The notes under the pieces are model-generated. The model did not search any database. It was not told the origin of the DNA and saw only the letters and a list, made by a program, of their open reading frames with translations. Positions 27,521 through 53,818 of a stretch of DNA of 64,000 nt are shown here, piece by piece. Every line of letters begins with the position of its first letter. Positions within the stretch are counted from its first letter, which is position 1. Source of the stretch: a virus. A program made the position numbers and the translations under genes. The DNA lies in IMG/VR virus record IMGVR_UViG_3300036719_006047, positions 1-64,000 of that record. One strand, 5' to 3'.

Positions 27521-28813
27521 TCACCGCATTTGAGCTACGTGTGAGCTCGCTATCGGATGGTTGTTGGTGACGCTGTGCCTCGACACGATCGTAGTCGAGA
27601 ACGACTTCGCATTTTCCCTCAACTGCCCCAAGATGCGCGATACCGCCGGCACCGTGTTTGATGCCACAACAGCGATGCGGGGCTGATTTACAGAAGATAC
27701 GTTTTCTTGCGTTACAACGCCTGCAATCTCTTCCGACAGCTGCGCCATCCGTAAAATCTCTTTGGCGTCGCTTTCAGGGAGAGAAGTAACGACAAAAACA
27801 CTGCCCTTCTGCCTCATGTCTCTCAGGTAAGACAGAGTGCGCGGGCGAACGATCAGAGAATACTTTTTGTTGTTTAGCCTAACGGTCCTGTTGCGCCTCA
27901 ACTGCTCGAGCGTGTTCTCGTAGCTGGTCAGCAGTGATGAAGACAATCCGCTCCCGCTGGTCGAGCGACTGTTGTTCATGTCAGCTCTGCGCTGATTGAT
28001 CAACTCCCTGATGTGCACAGCCGGGTCGATTTCGTTGTGCTCGCCGCTCACAGATTCTGACCAAGGCAGCAAAGAGACCAAAACTTCTTCGAGCTGAACG
28101 AACTGGGGCATGCTTTTGGGATTTTCCGCCGCAAGGGTTTCGTAAGGCAAACCCATCGTGACGCCAAAATCCTCCGCCTCTTGTGAGAGGGTAACCACCT
28201 CTGACGCTGTGTCGTCGAACACTTGCATCATCTTCGCGGAAGGCTCTTTTTCGGCCAAAATGCTATTGATGCTGCGACCGTACTTCTTGATAAACTCTTC
28301 CCGAGACAGAGGATCGATCTTCTCGTCCTTCTGCTTCGCCCAGAAAGCATGGGCGCGCTTGCTTCTCGCTCTGCTGGGGTAGAGACTTTCGTCAAGGTAA
28401 GTCGACATGACGTCGTACAGGAGAGGGCCGTAGCCCTTGGCCGCCACCGCGCTCAGCACAACCCACTTGCCTGAGTTGTTGCTCAAGAAAGCGACCATTG
28501 AAGCCACGAGCTTCTCTGCCGCAGAGCCGACAGAGTTGTCCCAGATGTACACGGTCGCAAATGCTCTTGTGTTCGACCGGGTGTCGTCTTGCTCTTCAAC
28601 GTTCACCCAGGCCTGAATGTCGCTTGACGGCTGAACGATGGGGTTACCACGCACGAACATCACTTCTCTGCTGCGGGGATTTTCCGCGATGTACTTTGTC
28701 TTGTGTGAAGGACAGCAAAAATGAACTGGTTCCCCTGATTGAGAGAGAACGCCGTACAACTCAGGGTTGCGAACCGCTACAGGCTTTCCAGAAATAGGGC
28801 AAGTCGCGCTCAT
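27521..28813 (-). CDS. Multidomain protein: YHS/TRASH-like N-terminus plus GNAT-like central domain
   Basis: CPISGKPV...VHFCCPSHKTKY; SAVAAKGYGPLLYDV...S..A..FW acetyltransferase-like motif; four x-x-NP motifs. Confidence 0.6.
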   Translation of the reverse strand: MSATCPISGKPVAVRNPELYGVLSQSGEPVHFCCPSHKTKYIAENPRSREVMFVRGNPIVQPSSDIQAWVNVEEQDDTRSNTRAFATVYIWDNSVGSAAEKLVASMVAFLSNNSGKWVVLSAVAAKGYGPLLYDVMSTYLDESLYPSRARSKRAHAFWAKQKDEKIDPLSREEFIKKYGRSINSILAEKEPSAKMMQVFDDTASEVVTLSQEAEDFGVTMGLPYETLAAENPKSMPQFVQLEEVLVSLLPWSESVSGEHNEIDPAVHIRELINQRRADMNNSRSTSGSGLSSSLLTSYENTLEQLRRNRTVRLNNKKYSLIVRPRTLSYLRDMRQKGSVFVVTSLPESDAKEILRMAQLSEEIAGVVTQENVSSVNQPRIAVVASNTVPAVSRILGQLRENAKSFSTTIVSRHSVTNNHPIASSHVAQMR

Positions 28814-28815
28814 GC

Positions 28816-29319
28816 TTAATCATTCTCCGCTTTGATCACGCCTCCGAGCACTCGGCCCCCAGAGCCGCCATTGACTTCGGGCGTGTCTGAATAGTTATCG
28901 TAGCCGCCGTGGATGATCAAGGATCTTCCGATAATGTCTGCGGGCACAACTCTGTTCGCTGCGACTGTCTGCAAACAAACACCATTTTTGTTGAAGTGCA
29001 GCCTCGGCAAGTCGCCTACATGACCTTTCCCGAAAGGGCCTTGATGGCTCTTGGTGTTGTAGGGATCGTAGTGATCTTTCGCGGCAAGTCCAGAAGTAAA
29101 CTGACCTTTATTGTTCTTTTCGGGAGCCAAGTTGCCGACTTCGTGGATGTGAAAGCCATACTCGCCGTTCTTGAACTGACTGCAAACAATACCGACGTCG
29201 AACAAAGTGCCTTTCGTGTGCAAAGAGTGAACAGGTTTGATGCACACGCAGCCGACCCACTTCAGCATATACTCAGCCGGACAATTCGAGAGAAGGTACA
29301 TGTTTGCGTAGATTCGCAT
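28816..29319 (-). CDS. sodC: Cu/Zn superoxide dismutase
   Basis: GFHIHE, HYDP, SHQG, GHVGDLP, GRSLIIH, DNY, GGSGGR: full metal-ligand set and active-site Arg. Confidence 0.92.
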   Translation of the reverse strand: MRIYANMYLLSNCPAEYMLKWVGCVCIKPVHSLHTKGTLFDVGIVCSQFKNGEYGFHIHEVGNLAPEKNNKGQFTSGLAAKDHYDPYNTKSHQGPFGKGHVGDLPRLHFNKNGVCLQTVAANRVVPADIIGRSLIIHGGYDNYSDTPEVNGGSGGRVLGGVIKAEND

Positions 29320-29322
29320 AGC

Positions 29323-29574
29323 TCAGTCCGCCCGGCTTTCGACAGCTTTCTTTTTCTCGACTTCGATCAGAACTTCTTGAACCTCTGCCCAGGCCGCTGC
29401 TTCAGATTCTGTATGCTCGGTCTGCATAGTAGCTACTCTGACTGTCAGCTCTTCTATGCGCTCTTGCTTCGTCTCAATCTGCGTCACCATGTGCAGCAGC
29501 ATCAGCAGCCACAACGCAGGAAGAACAAACCACGGCAGAGGAAAGTTGACCAGCTCTTTTGCCATCTCAGTCAC
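29323..29574 (-). CDS. Small membrane protein (N-terminal TM plus coiled coil)
   Basis: FPLPWFVLPALWLLMLLHM followed by heptads. Confidence 0.65.
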   Translation of the reverse strand: MTEMAKELVNFPLPWFVLPALWLLMLLHMVTQIETKQERIEELTVRVATMQTEHTESEAAAWAEVQEVLIEVEKKKAVESRAD

Positions 29575-31160: not shown

Positions 31161-31162
31161 GC

Positions 31163-31579
31163 TCAGTCCGCCAATACGATAGCGGTAGAATAGTCAGATC
31201 TCACAAGGAAGAACGTCGTATGCTTGGTCTTGCCCTTTGTAATCGCAAGCTCGAAGATCATGTCTCCTGGCTTCGCGTTGATGGCGCCGAGCTCTTCAGA
31301 CTCAACAGTTTCAGGTGCGGCGAGAACTCGGTAAGAAGCAGTCTTCGCCAAGTTGATGTCTGCCTGAGACACACCCAGCTCGGCCAAACGTTTTTTCGCC
31401 AGAGCTAAGGCCCTGTCTTTGGTTGCTTCTGCACTACCGTCGGCTGGGTCGAAATACCCTTGACTGTAGGCGTAAACCAAGCCGCTCACACCCAACAGCA
31501 CGGCCACTCCGAGCAAGACGTGAACAGCAGAAGGGTTTTCCTTCGCCTCTTCTACTTCTTCCTCGATGTAGTACATCAC
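31163..31579 (-). CDS. Single-pass membrane protein
   Basis: AKENP followed by AVHVLLGVAVLLGVSGLVYAY. Confidence 0.65.
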   Translation of the reverse strand: MMYYIEEEVEEAKENPSAVHVLLGVAVLLGVSGLVYAYSQGYFDPADGSAEATKDRALALAKKRLAELGVSQADINLAKTASYRVLAAPETVESEELGAINAKPGDMIFELAITKGKTKHTTFFLVRSDYSTAIVLAD

Positions 31580-31977
31580 ACACCCCGTTGCTTAAGCAGG
31601 TAGGCGAAGGTGTCGAGGCGATCGTTGAGGTCGTTCAAGTAGTTCTCGAGACCCGTCGTGCTCTCTGTGTTCGCTGTCGGGAGGAGTGATACGCAGTTGT
31701 CGCTCAGCTGCTGCGCCTGCTTGATGAGCTTGTGCAGCGACACAGAAGTTGTCATGTCGGCAGACATAGCTTGCGGATCAACTGCTCCCGTGTAAGCCAC
31801 GATGCGCTCACCGAGGGCGTCAATCGACTTGTCGATCTTGTCGTAGATTCTCTCGTAGAGGAGGTGATCCCCATAGGAGTTTTGCCCGGCCGCGTTCCAG
31901 TGGAGAACCCAGCCCCTCATCTTGATGCTGACGAGGGAACGCAGCAACTTGTGCAGCGCGACAGACAGATCACTCAT
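31576..31977 (-). CDS. Dps/ferritin-like four-helix protein
   Basis: Start ATG 31977 (ATGA overlap); LHWN..G.....HLLYERIYD.....D..GER ferroxidase-type pattern. Confidence 0.75.
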   Translation of the reverse strand: MSDLSVALHKLLRSLVSIKMRGWVLHWNAAGQNSYGDHLLYERIYDKIDKSIDALGERIVAYTGAVDPQAMSADMTTSVSLHKLIKQAQQLSDNCVSLLPTANTESTTGLENYLNDLNDRLDTFAYLLKQRGV

Positions 31978-32288
31978 CTTGCACTCCGGGCTGTGTCCCA
32001 CACGTTCTTCATCTTGCGAAGAACGCTGAGCTTGAACTGTTGGTCTTGTGCCATCTTGCTTTGCGCGCTGTCGACCTCTAAGCCGTTGTCAACGTATTGA
32101 CACAGCTTGTCCGGATTCGCGGCCAAGTGCTTCTTGAGTTCTTCGGCTGCTGCCCGCTCTAAGGGCTTTTTCGATTTCAGCATCTTTTCGATGACAGGTG
32201 ATGCTTTTCGGATCGCGACAGCGAGTTTCTCCTCGTCTGTCATCTCACCACGAAGCGAAGTCATCGACTTGTACGGATTGTACGCCAT
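31974..32288 (-). CDS. Hypothetical protein
   Basis: Likely start ATG 32288 (MAYNPYKS). Confidence 0.6.
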   Translation of the reverse strand: MAYNPYKSMTSLRGEMTDEEKLAVAIRKASPVIEKMLKSKKPLERAAAEELKKHLAANPDKLCQYVDNGLEVDSAQSKMAQDQQFKLSVLRKMKNVWDTARSAR

Positions 32289-32293
32289 GGTTC

Positions 32294-33157
32294 TCAGTCT
32301 TCTCCTCTGACTGTTTTGGCAGTCTTCTTTACTTGTTTCACTACCACGCGAAGGGCGACAAGACCCACCACAACGCCCGTTGCGATACCGATGCCCTTCC
32401 AAATCCGCACAGAAGTGCAGTAGTTCGGAAGCAAGTTCCCTGGGAAAGTATCTTCGCACTTGGGCGGAGGCGGCTCATTCGCCTCTGTCTTTTCATTTTC
32501 TGACTGCTCCGCCTTGACATCAGCTGCCGCCATCGCCTGCCCTTCGTCGGAAGCTCCACGAGATAGAATGCCTTGGACGGAGGCGAAAACAGAATTGGCT
32601 CTCGCTTCAGGGTCTTCGTCAGAGGCGTACTGACGCACAGCGTTGAGTGCTGCTGAATAGATGTCTTTTGTCTGATTCGTTCTGTTGATTGCGCCTTCTG
32701 TCAATCCTTCTGTTTTACCCTGCTTCGCCCACTTGGACCCCATGTCGAGGAGTCTCTCCCGACCTTGGCTATCGCTGGAACAAGCTCTTCCTGCAACGCC
32801 CAACCAATATGCTGACTTCAGGCGAGCTCCTGCTTCTGTGGCTGAGGGCCTTTCCATTTCAGCCTTCGCCGACAACTGGTTGATGTTTTTTAGGGGGCCA
32901 GCGTACGAATTCCACAACCAAGGATCTGCCATGTCTATTGCGTGACTGTACCAAATTTCTGTGTTCGGCTCGATTTGAGTCTTTCCGGCAACCGCAGCAG
33001 AAGACAAGGCAGATAGCTTAGACAAAACATTCATGGCAGTAAAAAATCCGTAGTTTCCTCTTGTACTGTATACAGGGTAGCCTTCAACTCCAGCCGAATA
33101 AATCGACGGCTGGAATACAGCGAAGCTTCTTTCGCGGAAGTTCTGAGGTTTGGTCAC
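32294..33157 (-). CDS. Tail-anchored membrane protein
   Basis: ORF 32294..33208; probable GTG start 33157 after GAGG; C-terminal TM WKGIGIATGVVVGLVALRVVV plus basic tail. Confidence 0.65.
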   Translation of the reverse strand: MTKPQNFRERSFAVFQPSIYSAGVEGYPVYSTRGNYGFFTAMNVLSKLSALSSAAVAGKTQIEPNTEIWYSHAIDMADPWLWNSYAGPLKNINQLSAKAEMERPSATEAGARLKSAYWLGVAGRACSSDSQGRERLLDMGSKWAKQGKTEGLTEGAINRTNQTKDIYSAALNAVRQYASDEDPEARANSVFASVQGILSRGASDEGQAMAAADVKAEQSENEKTEANEPPPPKCEDTFPGNLLPNYCTSVRIWKGIGIATGVVVGLVALRVVVKQVKKTAKTVRGED

Positions 33158-33183
33158 GGAAGCCTCGGGCTGTTGGCGCAGGT

Positions 33184-34607: not shown

Positions 34608-36368
34608 GTGCTACAGCGGTTTGCGAGGTGTTCTGTGCGTCACCAAAACACATTTACAGCTAACTTCATTCTCGTTCCTTACGCGCCTTCCCGGCGAAAC
34701 CCTGAGCGAGTCCTGTCTCCTGACCAAGCTTCTGCCGTAGAAGACATCAAAAATCTCATTTTAGCGCACTTCGAAAACAAAGCTCCGAAAGAGCACTTGG
34801 CGCTGGTCCTGACGGGCCCGGCAGGCACAGGCAAGACCACGATTGTAGATGCTCTCGTGAAACAGCTCGGGGATGCTGCTATCTTCTCGTATGCAGCTCC
34901 TACAGGAAAAGCTGCTGTCCGCTTGGCCGAATCGGTAGGCCAAGAAGCCCAGACGCTGCATCAGGTCATCTATGGCGCTCCGACAGAGCTGGGGCGCTGC
35001 CCGAAGTGCAACAAGTTCTCACAAGAGCTGGGCGTCTCGCAGAAAGAGGCGAAGCAGGCGGGAGGCTACAAGTGCCCCTCTTGCTCAGCTCGCTATCCCG
35101 CTACCAGTACATTCGAAACAAAGCTCGGCTTCGCGAAAGCGGACAGAGAGAAGGCAGCAGTCACCCAAGGCCCGCGTCCTCTCTTGATCGTGGACGAATC
35201 CTCCATGATCGGGCCTCAGATCTACGATGACTTGCTCGAAGCCACTCCCGTCACCACTCCGATCTTGTTTGTCGGTGACCGGGAACAGCTCGAGCCTGTT
35301 TTGTCGGCAGAAGAGAAGAGCAAGTACCCGGGCCAAATCTGGGGTCCCGACTTGGCTTCTCCGACGCAGAACCTCACTCAGATTCACAGGCAAGCTGCAG
35401 GCAGCCCCATCATCAACCTGGCGACGCGGGTACGCCTGGGCAAGAACGCTCATTCTCCCTTTGCACTTGATCCGGGTTTTTCGGGTTCATCTGATCTCGT
35501 GGTGCGGCGAGGAAGAGCACTTGACGCGGCCAAGTGGATCGCGGACATGCGAAAAAACCGACAGGATGCTACTGTTTTGGCTTTCACGAACAAAGAGTGC
35601 GCGGACGTCAACAGGGAAGCGAGAAAGTTGTTGGGTCTCGACGAAAAGAGCTACGCGGAATCTGTGGCAGCCGTGCGGTCCGACAGACTTCTGGTTTTGC
35701 GCAACAACCGTGGCTACGGCCGAATGAACGGAGAAGTGCTCGTCGTCAATGCTTCTTTCCGAGGCCCTGTTGTAGAAGGACAAGCAACCACATGGGTGCA
35801 GTTTATCGATTCGCCTGAGTGGGTGCTCACGGCCAACTCTCTTTACGGTCAGACGTCGCCGCAGGAGCGGCAGTCCGCGCAGAACAACATTCAATTCGAC
35901 TTCCAGGCGCCATTGGGGTCTTGGATCTCATACGTCAAGTCCATTGCGAAATCTGATGAAAACAAAGCATATGGCGTGAAGCCTGTTGACACTGAGTATT
36001 ACGACATCCTCGCGAAAGCTGGCACAGCAGACCGCAACGTGGCAGAGTCGGCTGGCCTCAGGGACAAGAAAGCGAAGAAGACGCTCGCTCAGTACGACGA
36101 GATGGCTAAGATTTTCGCAGTGCCTGATGCAGTCGAAGAGATCTACGCGAAGACAGGAATGCTCGCCGCAGACTTGCTCTTCGTCGATTACGGGCAGTGT
36201 CTTACGGTGCACAAGAGCCAAGGGTCTCAATGGAATTATGTCGCACTTCTCGCGGGGTACGCGTTCCACAAAGCTTGGGAGAATCCTGCCTCTTCCGAAA
36301 GCATGCGCAGATGGTTATACACTGCCGTCACTCGAGCGGCGAAGAAGTTGATCGTCTTCGCTGGGTGA
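34608..36368 (+). CDS. RecD/Dda-like SF1B helicase with Zn-finger insertion
   Basis: TGPAGTGKTT, APTGKAA, TLHQ, VDESSM, VGDREQL, LTQIHRQ, TVHKSQGSQW, YTAVTRA; CPKC...CPSC insert; start uncertain (GTG). Confidence 0.88.
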   Translation: MLQRFARCSVRHQNTFTANFILVPYAPSRRNPERVLSPDQASAVEDIKNLILAHFENKAPKEHLALVLTGPAGTGKTTIVDALVKQLGDAAIFSYAAPTGKAAVRLAESVGQEAQTLHQVIYGAPTELGRCPKCNKFSQELGVSQKEAKQAGGYKCPSCSARYPATSTFETKLGFAKADREKAAVTQGPRPLLIVDESSMIGPQIYDDLLEATPVTTPILFVGDREQLEPVLSAEEKSKYPGQIWGPDLASPTQNLTQIHRQAAGSPIINLATRVRLGKNAHSPFALDPGFSGSSDLVVRRGRALDAAKWIADMRKNRQDATVLAFTNKECADVNREARKLLGLDEKSYAESVAAVRSDRLLVLRNNRGYGRMNGEVLVVNASFRGPVVEGQATTWVQFIDSPEWVLTANSLYGQTSPQERQSAQNNIQFDFQAPLGSWISYVKSIAKSDENKAYGVKPVDTEYYDILAKAGTADRNVAESAGLRDKKAKKTLAQYDEMAKIFAVPDAVEEIYAKTGMLAADLLFVDYGQCLTVHKSQGSQWNYVALLAGYAFHKAWENPASSESMRRWLYTAVTRAAKKLIVFAG

Positions 36369-37059: not shown

Positions 37060-37545
37060 TTATCTCTTTAACCGCAAGCGTAGCATCTTTATTGCTATTC
37101 TTTCGGGACCGTCGGGTACTGCAATGATAGATACTTCTTTCCATCCCTTCCTTTCTATGAAAGAGATACCCTTTGTCTCTTTCAGGTAAGCCCATTTCAG
37201 TTGTGTTTCTGCCATGTAGGCGTTTGTGAAGTCGCAACTCTCCAAATCAGTATATTCCATATCGGTTCCGCGCAAAATCGCATTGCTAAAGTCAGCTTCA
37301 GGAAACACAGAGCCCATGAAGTTTACGCCGCTAAAGTCACCGCCGCTCAGGTTCAATCCTGTGGAGTAGTTCTGCCCTGAAAGGGCAATGAGGGATTGAA
37401 TCATCCATCCCACATTTGCTTTCCGAAAAAAATCTGCCATGGGCGGATTATTTTCGTTATTTTGCGCAGCTTTTCGGCAGCCCGCAGCGTACTCCACCAG
37501 AGCTTTTTCTGCCTCTGGCTGAGCTCTCGTGTTGAGCTTTTTCAC
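37060..37545 (-). CDS. Short pentapeptide-repeat protein (not a member of the DPRV array)
   Basis: LNLSGGDFSGVNFMGSVFPEADFSNAILRGTDM. Confidence 0.7.
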   Translation of the reverse strand: MKKLNTRAQPEAEKALVEYAAGCRKAAQNNENNPPMADFFRKANVGWMIQSLIALSGQNYSTGLNLSGGDFSGVNFMGSVFPEADFSNAILRGTDMEYTDLESCDFTNAYMAETQLKWAYLKETKGISFIERKGWKEVSIIAVPDGPERIAIKMLRLRLKR

Positions 37546-37546: not shown

Positions 37547-38419
37547 CTACCCGATGCCCCCGATCACATCGTCGTCGTCCCTCTCGTGAGATGTTTGGCG
37601 AGAGGAGGCACGAGCTCTCGTGTAGTCTTCAGGCACTTCTTCCTCTTCAAAGCCGTAGTAAGTCTCCTCGAAAGGCGGAGCGTCGTCTTGCCAGGAAGGA
37701 GGAGGCCCGTACTCCCAGGGATCTACTGTGCGTGAGGAGTGATGACGAGACTGGCGCGGAGGGGGAGCACTCTCTTGGCGCGGAGGGGGAGCACTCTCTT
37801 GGCGCGGAGGGGGAGCACTCTCTTGACGCGGAGGAGCGCCCGGCTTTTTAGCGTCTTTCTTGTTGAGCTTGCGCAAGATCTCTTCGGCTTTTTCGGGCGA
37901 GTAGCAGAACTTGTGGCCAAGCTCGGTCATGTAAGGGGAGCCGTCGTCGTTGAAGAACTGCAGGCAGACGCGGCCCGTCCGGTCGCGGCCTTCGCGGTAC
38001 TGAGGGTTGTCTCTGTTGCGGGCCATGAGTGCCTCCGAGATGACTTCTTTCGTTCTGGGAACGAGGTCGTACTTGCTGAGTTCGTCTTCAGACACGAAAA
38101 CAGCTTGAGTGTGCTCGTAGTTTAGCTTCACGCACCCGCTGTGAGGAGCATGTACGTTACCTTCGTGTGCCACGAAGTAGATGAAGAAGACGTTACCTTC
38201 AGTCTTTGCCGTCAAAAACTTCAAGTGACTCGGGTTCACGATCAACCCGGCTTCTTCTTGAAGCTCTCGTGAAGCTGCTTCGACTGAACTTTCTCCTTCT
38301 TCCACTTTCCCGCCAGGCAAGCCCCATTTGTTGGGCATCCAAGGCGCAGTCGGCCCTCGCTTGAGCAGCAGTACCTTCTTGCTGTTTGTTACGACGATGA
38401 CGCCGGCTGCGTGCTTCAT
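37547..38419 (-). CDS. NUDIX hydrolase with C-terminal extension
   Basis: Nudix box PGGKVEEGESSVEAASRELQEEAG; extension after ARNRDNP. Confidence 0.88.
   Translation of the reverse strand: MKHAAGVIVVTNSKKVLLLKRGPTAPWMPNKWGLPGGKVEEGESSVEAASRELQEEAGLIVNPSHLKFLTAKTEGNVFFIYFVAHEGNVHAPHSGCVKLNYEHTQAVFVSEDELSKYDLVPRTKEVISEALMARNRDNPQYREGRDRTGRVCLQFFNDDGSPYMTELGHKFCYSPEKAEEILRKLNKKDAKKPGAPPRQESAPPPRQESAPPPRQESAPPPRQSRHHSSRTVDPWEYGPPPSWQDDAPPFEETYYGFEEEEVPEDYTRARASSRQTSHERDDDDVIGGIG
37752..37834. repeat. 24-bp tandem repeat (~3.5 copies) encoding RQESAPPP
   Basis: TGGCGCGGAGGGGGAGCACTCTCT x3 plus a partial copy. Confidence 0.9.
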
Positions 38420-43432: not shown

Positions 43433-43444
43433 GGCCTGAATCAA

Positions 43445-45076
43445 ATGAGTATCGCTGAGCACATCGCTTCGGTTGAGTCTCAGCTCACTGAAGCGCAGAG
43501 AAAGAAACTAATCGTTCAGCTGCAGCGGCAGCTGAGTGATAGTTTGGTTCTGCTGTACAACCGAAACAGGTTTTATTTCTATTTCATCAGTCAGATTGCT
43601 ACTTACACGGCAGGGTTCACAAAGAACGGCACGACTACAGCTGCTGTTCGGGTCAAAAAATCAAGCGATAAAAGTTCGGTGAAGTTTGAGTTTTTAGCGA
43701 ACCCTATATTTTTCGACCTCATGACTGAAGAAGAGCGGCTTGGCGTTGTTGTGCATGAGCTGCTGCACATCGTCCACAGGCACATTCAGCGCGCGTCTGC
43801 TTTTGCGTCTGACTTCCGCGTCCTCAACTTCGCCGCAGACATCATCAACAACAGGGACATTTTGACCTACACCCACAACTACAAAGACCCTTACCGGCGC
43901 GTGCAAGAGGGTATTGATCTCCCCCGTATGTGTATTCTTGACGGTCTGTTCGATTTCCGCGGCAAAGAGACAAGTACGACTGATGAGATCTACGCCATCC
44001 TCATCGAGGCGAAGAGGCAGGCTAAAGTCAAAGGTCCCATGTCCGAAGCCGAAAGAGATGCTTTTTTGGCCAAGCATCCCGGTTTAGCGGAAGAGCCTAC
44101 TCCTCAGAACAGATTCGGTTTGTCCCCTTCCCAACCGACTTTGGGCATGGACCCCGAAGAATACTACAGATTTTCTCTGGGTGATAAAGACGGCAAAGGC
44201 GGAAGCGGTGGTTCGGGAAGCGGTGACGAGGAAGAAGATGATTCGTCTTCTGGAGACGGCTCTGATGCCTCAGACAGAGACAACTCTGATGCCGTTGGCG
44301 GGCACAGCGACCACTCACACTGGGAAGAAGATAGCGACAATTTCGACGGCCAAAACCAATATGGCGAGGACCTCGACAAAGAAGCGCAGGGCAAGATCAA
44401 CCGCGCTCTCGTTGATGCCGCTAGAAAGTCAGACTTTAATGGTGTCCCCGGTTCTCTCTCTGGCTTTCTCCGCGAGCTCATGAAGGGCCAAGCCCCCTTG
44501 CAGGACTGGAGAGCTATCCTGAGAATGCAGGTTGCGAGCAGTGCTTCGATTCGCAAGAAGACGACTTCTATGAAAGAGAGCCGTCGCTTCCCTCGGGAGC
44601 CCGGACTTCCTGGAGGGATGGGCACCAAAACTCTGCGCGATGTCAATGTGACTGTTGCAGTGGATACTAGCGGATCCATTGACCAAGAAATCTTGGCTCA
44701 GTTCATGGCTGAGATCGGGAAGATGCAGAAGAGCAACGCTGAAGTAAGCTTGTTCTTTTTCCACCAGGACGTTTACGGCCTCGACAAAGGCGGGAAGCCT
44801 GCTCTCTTTAAGAAGTTCGATGTTAACACATTCAATATGGAATCAGGCGGTACGGACTTCACGCCCCCCTTCCGAGTCGTCAAACAGCTTAGCAAAAAGC
44901 CTGATCTGTTTATCCTTCTGACAGACGGCATCGCTCCGCCTCCCGAGGTCAACCTCGGCACAGTTAAATACCTTTGGGCCATCTATGGGGGGCCAGGCGC
45001 AACGCAGGAAAGCCTGAAGGCAGATCCACACGTGAAAGCTTTGCCCGGCAAGAAAATCTACTTGGCTAACAAGTAG
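43445..45076 (+). CDS. HExxH metallopeptidase-like plus VWA domain protein (DUF2201-type), MoxR partner
   Basis: VVVHELLH, acidic linker, MIDAS VDTSGSI, GGTDF, LTDG. Confidence 0.85.
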   Translation: MSIAEHIASVESQLTEAQRKKLIVQLQRQLSDSLVLLYNRNRFYFYFISQIATYTAGFTKNGTTTAAVRVKKSSDKSSVKFEFLANPIFFDLMTEEERLGVVVHELLHIVHRHIQRASAFASDFRVLNFAADIINNRDILTYTHNYKDPYRRVQEGIDLPRMCILDGLFDFRGKETSTTDEIYAILIEAKRQAKVKGPMSEAERDAFLAKHPGLAEEPTPQNRFGLSPSQPTLGMDPEEYYRFSLGDKDGKGGSGGSGSGDEEEDDSSSGDGSDASDRDNSDAVGGHSDHSHWEEDSDNFDGQNQYGEDLDKEAQGKINRALVDAARKSDFNGVPGSLSGFLRELMKGQAPLQDWRAILRMQVASSASIRKKTTSMKESRRFPREPGLPGGMGTKTLRDVNVTVAVDTSGSIDQEILAQFMAEIGKMQKSNAEVSLFFFHQDVYGLDKGGKPALFKKFDVNTFNMESGGTDFTPPFRVVKQLSKKPDLFILLTDGIAPPPEVNLGTVKYLWAIYGGPGATQESLKADPHVKALPGKKIYLANK

Positions 45077-45906: not shown

Positions 45907-46389
45907 TCAGAAGAGGTCGAAGGGGTTGTTAGCGGCATTCTTCGCCTTCTTTCTGTCCGCAAAGCCGGGACCCTCGCCCCAAGCCTTCTTTCGGCCCGAC
46001 AAGAGGCGATCGCGATGGTTCAGCTCAGCCGCCGCAAGTGCTGCCAGCTCACGGTCGGAGCCCGCAGCGATCTGCGCGAGAAGCTCAGACGTTGCAGCCG
46101 CAAGATCAGCCTTGTGTGCGAAAGCAGACACTTCAAACGCCACGGGCGCGGTGTAAGTGCGATCTCGCTTCGGCAAACGCCCCGCCTTCTGCGCGCCCTT
46201 GAAAGAACGACGGCCTGCGTTCTGTCTCGCGGAAGAGCACTCGCTCGGATTGGCGTGCATCCAGCGCTTGCCGCCCTTGGGGCCGACCTCGGTGGGATGC
46301 TGACAAATCTGGCTCTCTCCGGGAGTGAACTCTTCTCCGCACTCTACGCAGCTCTGCCCGGGGAACTTCGCTGTTCTGACGTCCTGCAT
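45907..46389 (-). CDS. Hypothetical protein with N-terminal Zn-binding-like module
   Basis: Likely start ATG 46389; CVEC...H...C; ends AANNPFDLF. Confidence 0.6.
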   Translation of the reverse strand: MQDVRTAKFPGQSCVECGEEFTPGESQICQHPTEVGPKGGKRWMHANPSECSSARQNAGRRSFKGAQKAGRLPKRDRTYTAPVAFEVSAFAHKADLAAATSELLAQIAAGSDRELAALAAAELNHRDRLLSGRKKAWGEGPGFADRKKAKNAANNPFDLF

Positions 46390-46474
46390 GTGTGTCTCCG
46401 GCCGATCGGCTCGATGTCTCTTTAGCAGTAGCACGCTGAGCCGAGGCCGACGCTTTCTTTCCGTACCTGAAGTG

Positions 46475-46936
46475 CTACATCTCGATCAGGTTGAGCTTGA
46501 ACGTCTTTATTACGAGCTTTCCGTCAGAATCGGATTGCGCCACAAGTCTATTTTCGCTTTCTGTTCGCGTTTGTCTCAGGTCCAGCAGAATAAGTCCTTT
46601 CATCTCGTTGAGTGTTGGCATGTTTGTCTGCCACAAGGTCTCGTTAATGTCTGCTTCCGCAAAGTTTGTTCCTGTCAGCTTGCTCGCGGTAAACTGAGCT
46701 CCTACCAAAGTAGCTCCGCTAAAGTTTGAGTTCGTGAAGTCCACGAAATCGTAATTGCTGAAGCTCAAGTCCAAATCAGAGAGGTCCAAGTTGGTGAAAT
46801 CGCTATACTGTTCGCCTTCTTTTCTCTTTATTTCTGGCTGTTCTTCTCCTGCCCCTTGCCCGCTGTGATCCCACTCGGAACACTTATCCGCAAAATCGAT
46901 GAGAAACACAACGCGGGGGTCAGACATATCGGCCAC
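46475..46936 (-). CDS. DPRV-family pentapeptide-repeat protein, copy 1 (divergent, terminal)
   Basis: MADMSDPRV start, degenerate repeats, SDGKLVIKT tail. Confidence 0.85.
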   Translation of the reverse strand: MADMSDPRVVFLIDFADKCSEWDHSGQGAGEEQPEIKRKEGEQYSDFTNLDLSDLDLSFSNYDFVDFTNSNFSGATLVGAQFTASKLTGTNFAEADINETLWQTNMPTLNEMKGLILLDLRQTRTESENRLVAQSDSDGKLVIKTFKLNLIEM

Positions 46937-46944
46937 GGGTCACC

Positions 46945-47664
46945 TCAGTACCGCAAGGAGATACGCTTGATGCGTAGTTTACCGTCTTCTTCTGGCTGAA
47001 GCAAAAGATGTGGCTTCGCTTCGTCTTCAGCTGTAGGACTGGTCAGTAAAATTACATTGGCGCCCTTGAGGTTGGCGCGAGTGAGGTTGGCGCGAGTGAG
47101 GTTGGCACCAGCAAGATCGACGCGGGTCAGGTCGGCGGCGTAGAGGATGGCGCCGCTGAGGTCGGCGCGGCTGAGGTCGGCGCGGCTGAGGTTGGCGCTG
47201 TGGAGGCTGGCTTCGCTGAGGTTGGCGCCGATGAGCTTGGCGCCGATGAGCTTGGCGCCGTTGAGGTCGGCGTGTTCGAGGTCGGCGCCGTTGAGCTTCG
47301 CGCGGGCGAGGACGGCTTCTTCGAGGACGGCTTCTTCGAGGTTGGCGCCATCAAGGTTGGCGCCAGTGAGCTTGGCGCCGCGGAGGTCGGCGCCGCTAAG
47401 GTTGGCACCGCTGAGGTTAGCGCCTTTGAGCTTGGCGTCGATGAGGCCGGCGTCGGTGAGGTCGGCGCCGCCGAGCTTGGCGCCGGTGAGGTCGGCGCCG
47501 ATGAGGTTGGTAGTTTTGAGGTTTTCGCCGATGAGGTTGATATCAGACAGATCTTTGAGGTCAGACGGCAACAGCGGAATCTGCGATTTTTCTGCTTCAG
47601 CAACTCTGCATTCTTCTGCGTGAGACAGAACGCGAGGCACGCGAGGATCGGACATGTCTGCCAT
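46945..47664 (-). CDS. DPRV-family pentapeptide-repeat protein, copy 2
   Basis: [10 protein letters not shown](D/N/K)L(T/S)G pentads, [22 protein letters not shown] tail. Confidence 0.92.
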   Translation of the reverse strand: MADMSDPRVPRVLSHAEECRVAEAEKSQIPLLPSDLKDLSDINLIGENLKTTNLIGADLTGAKLGGADLTDAGLIDAKLKGANLSGANLSGADLRGAKLTGANLDGANLEEAVLEEAVLARAKLNGADLEHADLNGAKLIGAKLIGANLSEASLHSANLSRADLSRADLSGAILYAADLTRVDLAGANLTRANLTRANLKGANVILLTSPTAEDEAKPHLLLQPEEDGKLRIKRISLRY

Positions 47665-47672
47665 GGGTCACC

Positions 47673-48194
47673 TCAATAGCGTAGAGAAATACGTTTAATT
47701 TGTAATTTACCATCTTTTTCGGGTTGAAGCAGAAGATGTGGCTTCCGCTCGACGCTGGCAGGGCGGGTCAGTAGAATTACATTGCTGCTATTGAATTTAG
47801 TACCGCTAAACTTGGCGTTGGTGAGGTCGGCGCCGTTGAGCTTGGCGCCGGTGAGGTTGGTGCCGGTGAGCCTGGCGCCGGTGAGGTTGGCGCCGGTGAG
47901 GTTGGCGCCTTTGAGTTTGGCGTCGAAGAGGTCGGCTCCGGTGAGGTCGGCGTCGGTGAGGTCGGCGCCGGTGAGGTTGGCGCCCTGCAAGGAAGCGAGG
48001 GTGAGATCAGCGTTGGTGAGTTTGGCGCCAAGGAGGTTGGTGGTGTTGAGGTTGGCGTGGCTGAGGCTGATATTAGACAGATCTTTTAGTTCAGGCGGCA
48101 ATGACATAACAGGCCATTTTTGCACCACAGCTGAGCGACAAGCTTGTGCATGAGCGAGGACAAGTGGAACTCGGGGGTCAGACATGTCTGCCAT
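47673..48194 (-). CDS. DPRV-family pentapeptide-repeat protein, copy 3
   Basis: Same caps; [22 protein letters not shown]. Confidence 0.92.
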
Positions 48195-48202
48195 GGGTCA
48201 CC

Positions 48203-48907
48203 TCAGTATTGCAAAGGGATACGTTTAATTTGTAGTTTACCATCTTTTTCGGGCTGAAGCAGAAGATGAGGCCCCGGTCTAAAATTACCCGTGGGGTTGG
48301 TCAGCAGAATTGCATTGGCGCCCGTGAGGTCGGCGCGGCGGAGGTTGGTGCCGGTCAGGTTGGCGCCGGTGAGGTTGGCACCGGTGAGGTCGGCGCCGGT
48401 GAGGTCGGCGTTGCTGAGGTTGGCGCCGTTGAGGTCGGCGCCGTTGAGCTTCGCGTTGGCGAGGTAGGCGCTTTCGAGGTCAGCGTTGGTGAGGTTGGCG
48501 TCTTTGAGGTTGGCGCTGCTGAGCCAGGCGCCTTTGAGGTCGGCGCCGGTGAGGTTGGCGCTGTAGAGCTTGGCGCCGTTGAGGTCGGCGCCGGTGAGGA
48601 TGGCGCCTCTGAGGTCGGCGCCGTTAAGATAGGAGTGGTTGAGGGTGGTGCCGGTCAGGTCGGCGCCGCCGAGGTTGGCGCCGGTGAGGTTGGCGCCGCT
48701 GAGGTTGGCGTTGGTGAGGTTGGCATTGGTGAGGTTGGCGTTGGTGAGGTTAGCGTCGCTGAGGTTGGCGCCGGTGAGGTCGATGCTAGACAGATCTCGG
48801 AGATCGTTAGGTAAGTCCGGTCTATCCTTGCCTTGATCAACAGACTGTCTACAAGCTTCTGCATGAGCGAGGACAAGAGGAACGCGGGGGTCAGACATAT
48901 CGGCCAC
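48203..48907 (-). CDS. DPRV-family pentapeptide-repeat protein, copy 4
   Basis: Same caps; [22 protein letters not shown]. Confidence 0.92.
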
Positions 48908-48915
48908 GGGTCACC

Positions 48916-49599
48916 TCAGTACCTGAAGATGCGAGTCTTGATGCGAACTTTGCCGTCGGAGTGAAGCTCAACAACAAGATTCTTGCTCGCATTATCACTG
49001 GCTCCGACTCGCGCCGAACCAAGCATAATAAACTTTTGTGCTACGTCTTGCGGGAAGCCCGCCACGGCCACGTACAAGTATCTTCCTTCCGCTAACTGTG
49101 ACTGCGTGATCTTGGCTCCTTTCAACTCGGCGAAACCTATTTTCGCATTAGTGACATTTGCGCCAGTTAGGTCAGCGTCAGTGAAGTCTGTGTCATGTAG
49201 CACTGAGCCAGTGAGGTCAGCTTTACTCAAATTCGCTTCGCTCAAGTTAGCTTTGTCTAGTTTGGCGTAACGCAATACAGCAGAGCTGAGATTCGCGCCG
49301 ATGAGGTCTGCTCCGCTCAGATCGCAGTTCATCAGATTCGCTCTACTCAAGTTTGCTTTCTTTAGCTTTGCGCCGCGAAGCACAGCATTCCTCAAGTCGA
49401 CGCCGCTCAGATCAGACCCAGTGAAATCAACTCCCGCGAAGTTGGCAGAGCTGAGAACAGCTCCGCTTAGATCTATTCCAGGCAAAGAGGTCAACTCTTG
49501 GGGTAAATCGGGCTTCTCTTCCAGAAATTGAGCAGCTTCTTTGCAGACTTCCGCATAGGCAAGGACGGCTTCGACGCGAGGATCAGACATGTCCGCCAT
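48916..49599 (-). CDS. DPRV-family pentapeptide-repeat protein, copy 5
   Basis: Same N-cap; NLVVELHSDGKVRIKTRIFRY. Confidence 0.92.
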   Translation of the reverse strand: MADMSDPRVEAVLAYAEVCKEAAQFLEEKPDLPQELTSLPGIDLSGAVLSSANFAGVDFTGSDLSGVDLRNAVLRGAKLKKANLSRANLMNCDLSGADLIGANLSSAVLRYAKLDKANLSEANLSKADLTGSVLHDTDFTDADLTGANVTNAKIGFAELKGAKITQSQLAEGRYLYVAVAGFPQDVAQKFIMLGSARVGASDNASKNLVVELHSDGKVRIKTRIFRY

Positions 49600-49607
49600 A
49601 GCCTACC

Positions 49608-50060
49608 TCACTCATCGTCCATTCGGAGTTGAGTAGCCCTGATCCTAACCTTTCCTGTCTCAGCTACCTGCGCGATCAATCTCGGTCTTCTGAGCTCTTC
49701 TGATATTTTCATGTATTGTTCGCCCAGGAGTATAAGACCTTTCACTGTTTCTAGATTTTTTCTGGGCAAACCCATACCTTCGATGTTGGCTCCTGTGAAG
49801 TTTGCTCCCTTTATGTTGGCTTTATACATGTACGTTCTGCTCAAATCACAACCTGTAAAATTTGTTTCGCTCAAGTCAGCACCATGGAAATCTAAACTAC
49901 TCAAAGTGGCAAAGCTCATGTCCGCTTTAGACAAATCTAACTTTTTCATGTCTCCTCTTCTGTGTGGGAATTGAGGTCTTTCCTTTCCTTCCTTGAGCGC
50001 TATCCTGCAGCGCTCGGCGTGCTTTAGCAAGTAGACAACGCGGGGGTCAGACATGTCCAT
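49608..50060 (-). CDS. DPRV-family pentapeptide-repeat protein, copy 6 (short, divergent)
   Basis: MDMSDPRV; degenerate pentads; AETGKVRIRAT tail. Confidence 0.88.
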   Translation of the reverse strand: MDMSDPRVVYLLKHAERCRIALKEGKERPQFPHRRGDMKKLDLSKADMSFATLSSLDFHGADLSETNFTGCDLSRTYMYKANIKGANFTGANIEGMGLPRKNLETVKGLILLGEQYMKISEELRRPRLIAQVAETGKVRIRATQLRMDDE

Positions 50061-50068
50061 GAATCAGC

Positions 50069-50980
50069 TCAGTACTTGAAGATGGGAGTTTTGATGTGAA
50101 GTTTGCCGTCTGAGCGCAGTTCGACAACAAGTCTCTTTTTGGACTTTCGTTTCCAGGACGCAGGCGCTGGTTCGTGGGGCAAAATAACTTTTTCAGCTAC
50201 TTCTTTGGGGTAACCGTCTTGCGGTACATTGACATACTCTGCGCTATTCAATTGAATTTGAGTAATCTTCGCATCGGTCAAGTCGGCAAAACCTATTTGG
50301 GCGCGGTTGAGCTTGGCGCCGTAGAGGTGGGCGGCGCTGAGGTTGGCGCGAGTAAGGTTGGTCCCGGTGAGGTCGGCGCCGTAGAGCTTGGCGCGGGTGA
50401 GGTCGGCGCCCGTGAGGAAGGCGCCGGTGAGGTTGGCATCGGTGAGGTCAGCGTCTTCGAGGATGGCGCCGCCGAGCTTGGCGCCGGTGAGGTCGGCGCC
50501 GATGAGCTTGGCGCCGGTGAGGTTGGCGCCGGTGAGGTTGGCACCTTTGAGTTTGGCGCCATCAAGGTTGGCGCCAGTGAGCTTGGCGCCGCGGAGGTCG
50601 GCGCCGCTAAGGTTGGCGCCGGTGAAGTCGGCGCGGGTAATGTTGGCGTTGTAGAGGATAGCGGTGTAGAGGTTGGCTTTGGTGAGGTCGGCGCCTCCGA
50701 GGCTGGCGCCGTAGAGGTTGGCGCCGGTGAGGTTGGCACCGCTGAGGTTGGCGTTGGTGAGGTTGGCGCCGATGAGGTTGGCGCCGGTGAGGTTGGTGCC
50801 GCTGAGGTCGGCTTCGGCGAGGTTGGCGCCGGCGAGGTCGGCGCCGGTGAGGTCGATGCCAGAAAGATCTTTTAGCTCATGCGGCAGAGGAGGTATGCTC
50901 TTTTTCCACCACTTAGCTTCTCGACAAGCCTCTGCGTGAGCGAGGACAGCGATAACGCGGGGGTCGGACATGTTGGCCAT
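50069..50980 (-). CDS. DPRV-family pentapeptide-repeat protein, copy 7
   Basis: MANMSDPRV; [22 protein letters not shown]. Confidence 0.92.
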
Positions 50981-50983
50981 GAA

Positions 50984-53818
50984 TCACTTCGATCTCGATT
51001 TGCTGCTAGCTTCTTGTGTGTTGAGTTGATGCATCCTTCTTTCCGCCTCTGCTGCAGTAGCGAAAGTGAGGAGGTCAGGCATCACTCTGTAAACGATGGG
51101 CCCCGAGAAGATGTCACTCTTCTCTGCGATGACGCGACGCGGCCCTGACTTCCTACCTACCGCTAGCATCTTTTCGTAGCGTACACGCTTAGCCCAAAAC
51201 TCAGCAGGATCGGCGATTATCTTTTCTACAGCTCTTTCGCGGCTCTCGGGTGTCGGCATGTTTGTGCCAGGAATGAGGAAGGGATAGGAATGCCTCCTTC
51301 CGGCAATCTGAAAAGCTCTTTGCTTTGCTTCTTCAGGACTGTAGCCTTCTCTCAAACCTGACTCAAAGATGGCCAACCGCATCCGTCGAATTTGCTCTTC
51401 GTACGGATCGAGCACCTCGATGCCGTCTTCTTTGGGGTTGGTGTTTGCCGTCTGTTTGTCTTTGGGCGCCTTGGCGTTGATGTTGTCGTAGCGCAGCCTC
51501 ATGACCTGTTCTGGCATCAATTCAGCCATCAAGATATGCAGATAGTCTCTAACGTTGACGCCTGCTCCTTTACCTGAACCTTCTTCGAGCAAAGTCTTGA
51601 ACTCAATCGGCATCTCGTTGAGCACTTGAGCCGGCTTTCTGTTGTACGAAGGCGCCGAAGAATAATCGTCTTGCGGTCCTTCCCCCAAAACGAGGCGCGT
51701 GTGGTTGCGCTTCTTCTCGATTCGGCTCATCAACGCAAACGAGAAAGGATCGTTGGGGATGACGTAGATGATTTTGGGCTCTACGTTCTGCTCGGGCCGG
51801 TTGATGCGGTCTTCTGCTTGCGCTTCGATGCCGGGGTTCGGCATGCGCTGAATGAACAACAGCGTGTCTGCTGCGCTCAGGTTCAACCCTTCGCTGCCTG
51901 CTCGGGTCAAGATGACAATGGCTCTCTTGTCCTTCGCGTCAAGTTTTTCGGGGAACCTCAGACGTCGGCTCAACTCATCGAAGTCGCTGTATTCGTCTCC
52001 AAGCTTCTTTGCGGCTGACTGCGGCGTCTTGATCGGCTCGAGCACACTCGACTTCTTTTCTGCCATGCTTACGCGAGAAGCGTCTGCAACGTAAATCCTG
52101 ATGTTCGGGAATGCCTCTCTCAGCTTCTCAAAAAGCTTCTTCACGACGTCTTTGTGGTAAGCAAAGATAACCATCGGCCTGTCGAAATCTTTGTTCTCCG
52201 TGTTGTTTATTCTGTTTGACACAGCAGCGATCGTGCCATCGATCACGCTGGTGCCCATTCCTTTCATGAGAGTCGGAGGGATTGGGATGTAACCGCCGTA
52301 AAGCAGTTTCTTCAGCTTGTCCTTGAACACGGCGACGACAGCAGGGCTGAGTACTTCAGCCGCTGGTCTGCCTTTGTTTTTCGTCAGGTAAGCGTCGAAT
52401 TCCTGGAACACCTTTGAGGCTGCGTTGATCTTTTTTGCGTATTCTGCTTTGTCGGACGCCTTTCCACTCTTCCGCGAAGATCTTGCGATGACCTCTTTCG
52501 ACTTCTCGATAGCGGCCATAACTTCTTCGATTCTCTGGCTGTCAGGCGGCAGAATCAGGTAGGCTCTCTTCTTCTCTCTGAGCTGGAAACGAGCCAAAGC
52601 TCCAGTCTCTACAGCAAGTCGCCTGGGGTGACGAGTGCCCTTCGCGTACAACTCTTTTTGCAGCTTTTTCTGGGGCTCCTCGTTCTCCCAGTCCTTGAAC
52701 GTGATGTGACCTGTCCTTGAGAGCGTCATATCGTCGAAGTTCAGTCCTGTCTTGGCAGACAAGAAAATCGCTTCGAGCGACTTCGCCATCTGCTCGTCTG
52801 CGACAGGGTAGTCGTGGTAAGGAACCTCACCCACCGGCTCGAGCATGTTCAGAATGCTGGCAAGCTCTCCTGGGTCGTTGAGCATCGGTGTGCCCGTCAA
52901 CGCCAGCACGTGGGGGATGTAGTTCGCCAAATAGTAGCAGACTTTTGTGTTTTCCGAGCCGTAGTACTTCAACCTGTGGGCTTCGTCGAACACAATGGTC
53001 TTGATCTTGGCTGTGATCAGGTCACGAACTTCGACCGCTTCTTTTTGCTGTGCAGGAGTTGGTAACTTTAGTCTTTTGCTTTTTGCCACGACCTCCTCGA
53101 CAGGCTCGCTCTCGTCCTCCATATCGTCCAAGCTTGATGCAAGCTCAACTCTATCTTCCTTTGCGCCGAACGCTGTGTAGTACTCGGGCAGGGCTCTGCC
53201 GGCATAAGCTCCTGCGGGCCAAAGTAACGTTCTCAGCATCTCATAGGTAACCAGAATTACACTGTTTTCGTTAGCTTCTTCGACCGTTCTTCTGAGCCTG
53301 TTTGATGCCTCTACCTCGACTACAGTGTAGTTTGTTCTCAGCGCAAAAGTGTTTTTCCAAGAAGGCAGAGCGCTTCTCGGACAAACAACGAGGGCAGGCA
53401 AGTAACTCTCTGTGTCCGTCTCGAGCGTTTGGCCCGCATCGCCTGCGGCAATCGTCAAAACAGCTGTAGTTGTCTTTCCTAAGCCCATAGGATCGAACAA
53501 GCCCGCTCTGCCGCCTCGGTACAAAGCGAACAGCATCCCGGCCATCTGGTAGGGCAAGGCTGGTTGGCCTTTGCTGTAAAACTTCTTCGCCTTGATAGCA
53601 TTATCGAGAACGGCTTTAGCGGCCGCATCGATCTTCTCGTAATCCTCTCCCGAGAAGCCGTACTTCTCGTTGATGATACCCGGATAGCGCGAGATCTTGC
53701 TCCCTGTGTCGGGAGTGATCTCTGCTACAGGACTTAAATTCTGCTTTTTGCCTCTCTTTGCGGGAGGGTTTTTGCGGAAGATGACTTCTCGGTCCGGGAG
53801 AAGAGCGATGCGGTACAT
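50984..53818 (-). CDS. Second SNF2-family helicase-like protein, embedded in the pentapeptide array
   Basis: DPMGLGKT, VVCPRS, FDEAHRLK, LTGTPMLN, EGLNL..AD, QAEDRINR; RKNP near N-terminus, NTNP before C-terminal module. Confidence 0.85.
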   Translation of the reverse strand: MYRIALLPDREVIFRKNPPAKRGKKQNLSPVAEITPDTGSKISRYPGIINEKYGFSGEDYEKIDAAAKAVLDNAIKAKKFYSKGQPALPYQMAGMLFALYRGGRAGLFDPMGLGKTTTAVLTIAAGDAGQTLETDTESYLPALVVCPRSALPSWKNTFALRTNYTVVEVEASNRLRRTVEEANENSVILVTYEMLRTLLWPAGAYAGRALPEYYTAFGAKEDRVELASSLDDMEDESEPVEEVVAKSKRLKLPTPAQQKEAVEVRDLITAKIKTIVFDEAHRLKYYGSENTKVCYYLANYIPHVLALTGTPMLNDPGELASILNMLEPVGEVPYHDYPVADEQMAKSLEAIFLSAKTGLNFDDMTLSRTGHITFKDWENEEPQKKLQKELYAKGTRHPRRLAVETGALARFQLREKKRAYLILPPDSQRIEEVMAAIEKSKEVIARSSRKSGKASDKAEYAKKINAASKVFQEFDAYLTKNKGRPAAEVLSPAVVAVFKDKLKKLLYGGYIPIPPTLMKGMGTSVIDGTIAAVSNRINNTENKDFDRPMVIFAYHKDVVKKLFEKLREAFPNIRIYVADASRVSMAEKKSSVLEPIKTPQSAAKKLGDEYSDFDELSRRLRFPEKLDAKDKRAIVILTRAGSEGLNLSAADTLLFIQRMPNPGIEAQAEDRINRPEQNVEPKIIYVIPNDPFSFALMSRIEKKRNHTRLVLGEGPQDDYSSAPSYNRKPAQVLNEMPIEFKTLLEEGSGKGAGVNVRDYLHILMAELMPEQVMRLRYDNINAKAPKDKQTANTNPKEDGIEVLDPYEEQIRRMRLAIFESGLREGYSPEEAKQRAFQIAGRRHSYPFLIPGTNMPTPESRERAVEKIIADPAEFWAKRVRYEKMLAVGRKSGPRRVIAEKSDIFSGPIVYRVMPDLLTFATAAEAERRMHQLNTQEASSKSRSK

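Follow-up and report, generated by a model that had tools for sequence, protein, structure and literature searches.

Why should a short peptide centred on Asn-Pro recur at the leaders and domain borders of unrelated proteins encoded in one part of a virus genome? This question is raised by IMG/VR virus record IMGVR_UViG_3300036719_006047, a linear record of 136,910 bases with an estimated completeness of 85%, whose first 64 kb (64,000 nucleotides) constitute the window analysed here. An earlier examination of these letters (hereafter the sequence-only reading) had proposed that (R/K/A)-x-N-P marks leaders and domain borders across many proteins encoded between positions 27,521 and 53,818, and that it acts as a virus-wide signal for protease cleavage or capsid packaging. 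We conclude with high confidence that, in this phage lineage, selection at the protein level maintains [A/M/L]-[R/K]-x-N-P as a true short linear motif. Genes were called with a coding-score heuristic of our own, and start sites were inspected.

Every tetrapeptide listed by the sequence-only reading was recovered in the gene to which it had been assigned; two of them, AYNP and AANP, fall in an overlapping open reading frame (ORF; 31974-32459) that was dropped by the coding-score gene model. In the 27.5-53.8 kb region, Asn-Pro (NP) is mildly enriched by within-protein shuffling (31 seen versus 20.1 expected, P = 0.008), which taken alone is weak evidence; NP ranks 26th of the 400 dipeptides in the region, and its observed/expected ratio genome-wide is 1.33. 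The signal resides in the basic context, as had been suggested, and more precisely in a basic residue two places ahead of Asn. R-x-N-P occurs 10 times versus 1.2 expected (P = 6e-7) and ranks 11th among the 8000 patterns of the form a.bc, preceded by pentapeptide-repeat and low-complexity patterns only; none of 300 shuffles gave any a.bc pattern as extreme. With both basic residues admitted, [RK]-x-N-P occurs 12 times versus 2.4 expected, and none of 1000 shuffles reached 12. Of the three residues originally proposed for this position, R and K are thus strongly enriched whereas A-x-N-P is not; Ala is enriched three places ahead of Asn (12 of the 31 NP) rather than two, and the consensus is [A/M/L]-[R/K]-[S/N/any]-N-P-[M/Y/F/S]. 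The supposed bias towards leaders was borne out in part, with 14 of the 31 NP lying within the first 65 residues (21% expected, P = 0.003).

When the same genes are read in their other five frames, 0-3 matches are found versus about 1 expected, and the DNA at the window sites shares nothing past AAYCCN, the Arg codons being mixed. These two observations place the signal at the protein level, and a DNA-level repeat or promoter was rejected on the same grounds. Over-extended ORF starts were also rejected as a source of the motif: starts were checked, and the RRNP site of the RecD-like helicase described below is coding under either of that gene's two possible starts. Contrary to the earlier proposal, the motif is not virus-wide: [RK]-x-N-P is found once at 9.2-27.5 kb (1.2 expected) and five times at 53.8-137 kb (4.8 expected), and the 12 sites in the region sit in only eight proteins, three of them in a MoxR-like ATPase and another three in a protein of 952 amino acids.

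The 952-amino-acid protein (38830-41688, minus strand) has four modules and a motif at each of its three joints. Its N-terminal module is followed by RVNP (residues 199-202; 41083-41094, minus strand), a core domain (residues 203-371, phrog_2859), RNNP (residues 372-375; 40564-40575, minus strand), a middle module (residues 376-781), KRNP (residues 782-785; 39334-39345, minus strand) and a DUF5824 domain. In relatives the RVNP position reads RRNP, KKNP, KQNP, KNNP or RSNP, and the KRNP position TNNP, RSNPFNP or RNNPFNP. Across 26 homologs, [RK]xNP occurs 60 times versus 5.8 expected, and NP at three times expectation. Most of these homologs carry [RK]xNP 8-15 residues ahead of the core, and most carry it again within about 15 residues past the final conserved Trp of the core regardless of which module comes next; no [RK]xNP site was found after the core in P0126, P0127 and P0144.

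One homolog (P0122, 94-98% identical) matches residues 1-375 and 784-952 of the window protein and lacks the intervening 409 residues. RNNP and KRNP form the upstream and downstream edges of this indel, and the two alignments join at the same N-P, that is, a module has been deleted exactly from NP to NP. Other homologs carry different modules: P0136 combines the core domain with pentapeptide repeats and ART-PolyVal, P0147 and P0148 carry HExxH modules, and the five modules of P0148, one of them of the HExxH type, are joined by four linkers reading NPRRRRN or NPRRNRS. The make-up of P0136 suggests that the pentapeptide-repeat array of the window (37060-37545, minus strand; 46475-61137) may draw on the same pool of cargo modules.

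The second set of three sites is found in a MoxR-like AAA_5 ATPase of the long phage form (529 amino acids; 41843-43432, plus strand; Pfam AAA_5 and PHROG ATPase matches). It has a 62-residue leader containing RMNP (residues 8-11; 41864-41875), RSNP (residues 28-31; 41924-41935) and RHNP (residues 59-62; 42017-42028), all on the plus strand, and it ends with QQNP and an Arg-rich tail. RHNP closes the leader and is followed by a Met that has no ribosome-binding site ahead of it. In the four closest long-form relatives (P0003-P0006, 36-41% identity) the leader is present too, and its sites of the A-R-x-N-P type fall into shared alignment columns: ARHNP, ARMNP and VRSNP at the first site, HANP, HKNP and RANP at the second, and RARRN, ARRNS and RARYN at the third. 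Long forms carry additional copies in a C-terminal insertion and in the tail, so that relatives have 3-8 copies across leader and tail, and [RK]xNP occurs 12 times in the four long forms versus 0.9 expected. The 114 bacterial MoxR homologs (about 370 amino acids) have no leader, and among them [RK]xNP occurs twice versus 10 expected.

A third family is represented by a RecD/Dda-like helicase (34608-36368, plus strand; Pfam and PHROG matches). Translation most likely begins at codon 10, a GTG at 34635, which has a GAGG ribosome-binding site ahead of it and at which a 98%-identical database protein begins. RRNP (34692-34703, plus strand) ends a leader of about 20 residues, five residues before the LSPDQ start of the core, and is conserved in relatives: eight of the closest homologs (P0175, P0176, P0178, P0179, P0181, P0185, P0188 and P0190) have [RK]xNP 4-8 residues before LSPDQ, and P0183 has V-R-N-P where the other relatives have [RK]xNP. 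Leaderless homologs start where the leader ends in the motif-bearing ones, and in P0181 the core domain of the 952-amino-acid type is fused to RecD with a motif at each joint. An AlphaFold2 model of the helicase (mean predicted local distance difference test, pLDDT, 81.5) gives 32-41 for the leader and 94-97 for the core, which argues against the motif being buried in a fold: it is predicted to lie exposed at the step from disorder to fold, with the first helix starting seven residues after NP. That distance led us to reject a helix N-cap role for the motif in this protein. P0183 also carries an intein with a LAGLIDADG domain.

Exchange of modules at the motif is also suggested by a two-module protein (37547-38419, minus strand) with a Pfam NUDIX domain at residues 4-127 and a second module at residues 136-226 and beyond. 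Its RDNP seam (residues 136-139; 38003-38014, minus strand) was found by tetrapeptide scan and by comparison of modules among relatives. The second module reappears after RYNPFDNP in P0137 and P0139, and the NUDIX module of P0129 begins right after VMSNP, a point with which Met1 of the window protein aligns to within about one residue. Together with the indel in P0122, these comparisons indicate that the seams are the exact points at which modules enter, leave or are exchanged.

Two cases look like features of their own families rather than instances of the shared motif. The first is the N-terminal NP of a 944-amino-acid SNF2 helicase (50984-53818, minus strand; Pfam SNF2-rel_dom), in which RKNP occupies residues 15-18 (53765-53776, minus strand). 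The NP itself (residues 15-17) is kept in all eight relatives, seven of which lack the basic context and mostly read I-N-Y-N-P. This helicase also has NTNP before its C-terminal module, and a seam-like NP ahead of that module is present both here and in its closest relative. The second is RANP in a DUF7831 protein (38426-38833, minus strand; RANP at residues 19-22, 38768-38779, minus strand), a doubtful member situated within the domain, immediately ahead of its first strand; its position is partially conserved, with RSNP in Ruegeria phage RpAliso and HKNR in Mesorhizobium phage Cp1R7A-A1. The remaining carriers are a 430-amino-acid protein of no known family (27521-28813, minus strand), with VRNP at residue 16, AENP at 45, RGNP at 57 and AENP at 231, and a small membrane protein with KENP at residues 13-16 (31532-31543, minus strand), directly ahead of a transmembrane stretch.

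The motif is therefore found in three settings: in exposed linkers at essentially every joint of multi-module proteins; at the end of N-terminal leaders of about 10-30 residues, often past a stretch that by eye is hydrophobic and strand-like (MoxR, RecD and probably SNF2); and at the C-terminus, where N-P leads into an Arg-rich tail in three families that are not related, namely MoxR, a RecD homolog and an ART-bearing protein. The proposal that it marks leaders and domain borders is upheld by its conservation at these places in several unrelated families whose relatives are about 40% identical, and it is this conservation that makes the finding more than a statistical curiosity. Literature searches on the motif, DUF5824, DUF7831 and Asn-Pro in phage polyproteins found no paper describing it. 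The present analysis appears to add the motif on leaders and tails of stand-alone enzymes, the exact NP-to-NP indel, and a link between the core domain and protease-capsid fusions, to which we return below.

Relatives combine the core with NUDIX, RecD, pentapeptide repeats, ART-PolyVal and HExxH (zincin) modules, with the motif at the joints, and on this basis they can be regarded as polyvalent-type proteins. At least two unrelated domains are combined both in the 952-amino-acid protein (core, DUF5824 and two further segments) and in the NUDIX protein (NUDIX and a second module that also occurs elsewhere). No PolyVal-named Pfam domain was found in the window proteins; ART-PolyVal occurs in the homolog P0136, and the HExxH modules in P0147 and P0148. 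Polyvalent proteins have been proposed to be delivered with invading DNA and to have their domains freed by in-built metallopeptidases (Iyer, Burroughs, Anand, de Souza and Aravind 2017; PMC5512222). The proteins described here resemble them in stringing unrelated effector or enzyme modules together in one polypeptide and in shuffling these rapidly (PMC5512222). They differ in three respects: a search of that paper by terms returned no mention of linkers or of a conserved motif at joints (PMC5512222), the motif here is also carried by stand-alone replication-type enzymes, and the window genes have early and replication genes, not head genes, as their neighbours.

What, then, does the motif do? 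We ranked the readings with a processing site first, a docking tag second, an inherited linker third and self-cleavage fourth. The reading that we tentatively favour, at somewhat short of an even chance, is that a protease recognises [R/K]-x-N-P and cuts at or beside Asn-Pro. Cutting at the seams would separate the modules and remove leaders and tails, and the protease would be encoded by the phage. A polyprotein code would lead one to expect one site per joint, sites that close leaders, and stand-alone genes whose starts coincide with those of the fused modules, as is seen here. A polyprotein needs a site at every joint, while a docking tag is needed once per protein, and this favours processing. 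We think it possible, with less assurance than for the processing site as such, that [R/K]-x-N-P is the cut-site code of a viral processing system not described before: an Asn-Pro-directed protease, or assisted self-cleavage, would free polyvalent cargo modules, and leader plus site would tag RecD, MoxR and SNF2 for loading into the virion, from which they would be injected with the DNA as a ready-made enzyme kit. Cleavage, a protease and delivery through the virion are in this scheme what we infer from the positions and conservation of the motif and from the exchange of modules.

Such a scheme has a counterpart in T4-type phages, whose prohead proteases cut at L/I-x-E (S/A/G-x-E in phiKZ-like phages). 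As in T4-type capsid targeting sequences, an N-terminal leader of about 10-20 residues ends in a fixed short motif on unrelated proteins, and, as in T4-type prohead processing, sites are repeated inside multi-part proteins, which in the T4 type are head proteins. The system described here differs in its motif, in having Pro after the key residue, in that searches of the record recognised neither a prohead protease nor a head gene, and in being known from sequence alone.

Several points weigh against processing. The evidence for cleavage is indirect, and no candidate enzyme can be tied to the motif, as prohead protease and structural genes were not recognised in the record. To our knowledge, few endopeptidases can cut a bond that has Pro at P1 or P1', and we know of no need for processing in RecD, SNF2 or MoxR. 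Cultured phages that carry the core domain in protease-capsid fusions must have these processed, yet they lack the motif. The homolog counts come from kin sequences and not from independent events, and both the borders of the 27.5-53.8 kb region and the motif itself were picked post hoc. Lastly, an AlphaFold2 model of the 952-amino-acid protein (pLDDT 44) was too poor to define linkers.

The sequence-only reading had named a candidate processor, the MoxR ATPase together with the DUF2201 protein encoded next to it (43445-45076, plus strand; Pfam DUF2201_N and DUF2201), which has a putative HExxH metallopeptidase domain (HELLH at residue 104) and a VWA-like domain. Nothing in the sequences ties this pair to the motif. 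Of the three AAA/DUF2201 pairs in the genome, only that of the window has an N-P leader on its ATPase, and the bacterial homologs are leaderless. The three pairs lie at 41843-45076, 102083-104538 and 121537-123950, two of the three ATPases being of the AAA_5 type; the HExxH proteins of the latter two pairs are encoded at 103366-104538 and 122694-123950, and a separate 220-amino-acid HEMSH protein is encoded at 105934-106596.

Recognition of Asn-Pro by an HExxH enzyme has a precedent in PPEP-1, a bacterial zincin with the optimal site VNP|PVP. The likeness is that x-N-P is read just before the cut, so that a specificity of this kind is possible for such enzymes. The PPEPs are secreted Firmicute enzymes unrelated to DUF2201. 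PPEP-1 requires Pro on the far side of the cut, and a PPEP substrate was rejected, as Pro follows NP at only two of the 33 region sites (RKNP-P in SNF2 and ENNP-P in the protein at 37060), one of these two belonging to the 12 basic-context sites. Two further candidates were discarded. Ribosome skipping of the 2A type (NPG|P) was rejected because no NP site in the region is followed by G-P. The core of SecM or RAPP-type arrest peptides is R-A-[G/P]-P; the motif described here has Asn in third place and no fixed residue in second place, and this candidate was rejected as well.

If the motif is not cut, it may be bound. The basic x-N-P would then be a tag for docking or loading, recognised by a common partner such as the prohead or portal interior, the packaged DNA or a scaffold of the replication factory, with additional copies adding avidity; we consider this unlikely but worth keeping in view. 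It would suit the location of the sites in disordered termini and linkers, as judged from the RecD model, the 3-8 copies in MoxR leader and tail, and the Arg-rich flanks, including the N-P-(R)n tails on three unrelated families. It would also suit an indirect link of the core domain to the phage head. In Synechococcus phage S-CBS1 and Roseobacter phage CRP-406 the core forms the N-terminus of genes that fuse Peptidase_S78 and Phage_capsid and that directly follow the portal gene, as would fit capsid-borne proteins; in phage DSL-LC01 the core is found in the gene immediately upstream of the S78 protease. A protein-language-model look-up also returned viral clusters, one of them auto-named capsid protein fragment, which is a weak lead. 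The head-gene versions of the core, however, lack the motif, no candidate partner emerged, and a single tag per protein would do whereas the motif stands at essentially every joint.

Somewhat less probable, in our view, is that the motif has no partner at all and is an inherited linker, a passive hinge that spreads with its modules by recombination at existing joints, so that its conservation would reflect shared descent and in-frame selection. The exact NP-to-NP module indel in P0122, the module swaps at the NUDIX seams and the four near-identical linkers within P0148 are all as this explanation would have them. Pro and Arg are also reportedly common in natural linkers, a result that the linker survey of George and Heringa (2002) is said to contain. 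Against this, the AAYCCN shared among window sites, with its mixed Arg codons, would not suffice for homologous exchange; N and P are fixed while adjacent linker residues vary at about 40% identity; and the motif also closes the leaders of stand-alone enzymes, where a linker would have nothing to join.

The type III secretion proteins FlhB and YscU are cleaved at N|PTH, and cleavage without a protease, by asparagine cyclisation at Asn-Pro in the manner of RsgI or reovirus mu1, seems very doubtful for the motif described here. Flanking residues of known systems, such as the TH after NP in YscU, are missing here. What the motif has in common with the self-cleaving proteins is the dipeptide itself and the short N-terminal piece that would be released. 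RsgI anti-sigma factors, reovirus mu1 and aquareovirus VP5 have Asn-Pro as their scissile pair and cleave themselves there, in a folded turn (PMC10328401); in reovirus mu1 the cut after Asn42 frees a short N-terminal piece of leader-like size (PMC10328401). Cleavage in these proteins depends on a strained turn that forms part of a folded domain, whereas the sites described here have a basic residue two places upstream and lie in low-confidence, probably disordered linkers and leaders. In RecD the motif precedes the fold, in a leader with pLDDT of 32-41, and it was on this account not assigned to the Asn-Pro lyase type. The motifs of the 952-amino-acid protein fall in low-confidence stretches of its model, which is poor as a whole.

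That the pattern is due to chance or composition is highly improbable and largely excluded: it was chosen post hoc from thousands of possible patterns, motif and region were both selected after looking, and with 12 sites in eight proteins the excess in per-protein presence is by our estimate near that of the best shuffle pattern, but neither the 300 nor the 1000 shuffles gave a match, the other reading frames show no excess, and the motif recurs at matching alignment positions in three protein families whose members are about 40% identical, as well as in sets of homologs.

If the motif is cut or docked, a simple rule read from sequence would allow large unannotated viral proteins to be divided into their functional parts, and one could foretell which enzymes enter the cell with a phage. 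Cutting would in addition imply a protease specificity at Asn-Pro, which is rare and useful. Were the sites mere inherited linkers, the seams would still give the exact points of module exchange in these phages.

The genes of the window are mostly on the minus strand. Those at 9-27 kb encode a PolA-type polymerase, helicases, ParB, a Sak4-like protein and exonucleases. At 27.5-54 kb there are small membrane and accessory proteins, the RecD/Dda-like helicase, the NUDIX, DUF7831 and 952-amino-acid DUF5824 proteins, the pair of MoxR-like AAA_5 ATPase and DUF2201 protein (HExxH plus VWA-like), pentapeptide-repeat genes and the SNF2 helicase. Beyond the window lie rIIA/rIIB, the two further AAA/DUF2201 pairs and Cas6. 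In the 137-kb record (about 85% complete) the searches recognised neither a terminase nor a capsid protein of the HK97 or T4 type, portal families being outside their scope, and no prohead protease of the S78 or S77 type (Peptidase_S78, S77) was found, the S77 control search having been empty in all control genomes. The structural genes are either highly divergent or within the missing 15% or so of the genome.

Searches of a cultured-phage collection with DNA and protein gave distant matches only. IMG/VR scans with MoxR, with the MoxR alignment and with the alignment of the 952-amino-acid protein gave no close relative, and one metagenome scan returned short bacterial-type MoxR loci only. Neither Erythrobacter phage XM05 nor Sphingobium phage Lacusarx has a leader on its helicase, so that these searches yielded no cultured phage bearing the motif. 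Erythrobacter and Sphingobium phages also provide the nearest cultured matches to the RecD helicase, and DUF7831 homologs are concentrated in large alphaproteobacterial phages (Caulobacter phiCbK-like, Rhizobium, Mesorhizobium, Ruegeria and Brevundimonas); both observations hint at alphaproteobacteria as the host group.

Further N-P sites were noted at the ends of other proteins. Outside the region, a 419-amino-acid protein (68054-69313, minus strand) starts with M..QKRRNPGAANNP and ends in ...SNPRPSA, and a 140-amino-acid protein (113236-113658, plus strand) has AARNNPE close to its end; both are seam-like. The C-terminus of a 175-amino-acid protein (45907-46434, minus strand) reads ...KNAANNPFDLF; in P0169-P0174, six distant relatives of SNF2, ...NP[R/Y/H]W[P/L]F stands at the C-terminus or close to it. 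Both resemble C-terminal tails that bind a hub, of the clamp or SSB-tail type, and an N-P precedes each.

The 1601-amino-acid PolA-type polymerase (11776-16581, minus strand) has internal stretches that match PHROGs named ribonucleotide reductase, thymidylate synthase and PhoH (residues 359-513), a pattern typical of inserted inteins or homing endonucleases. By eye, the product of 28816-29319 (minus strand) resembles a Cu/Zn superoxide dismutase (HIHEVGN...GGSGGR), and that of 31576-32001 (minus strand) a Dps/ferritin-like protein.

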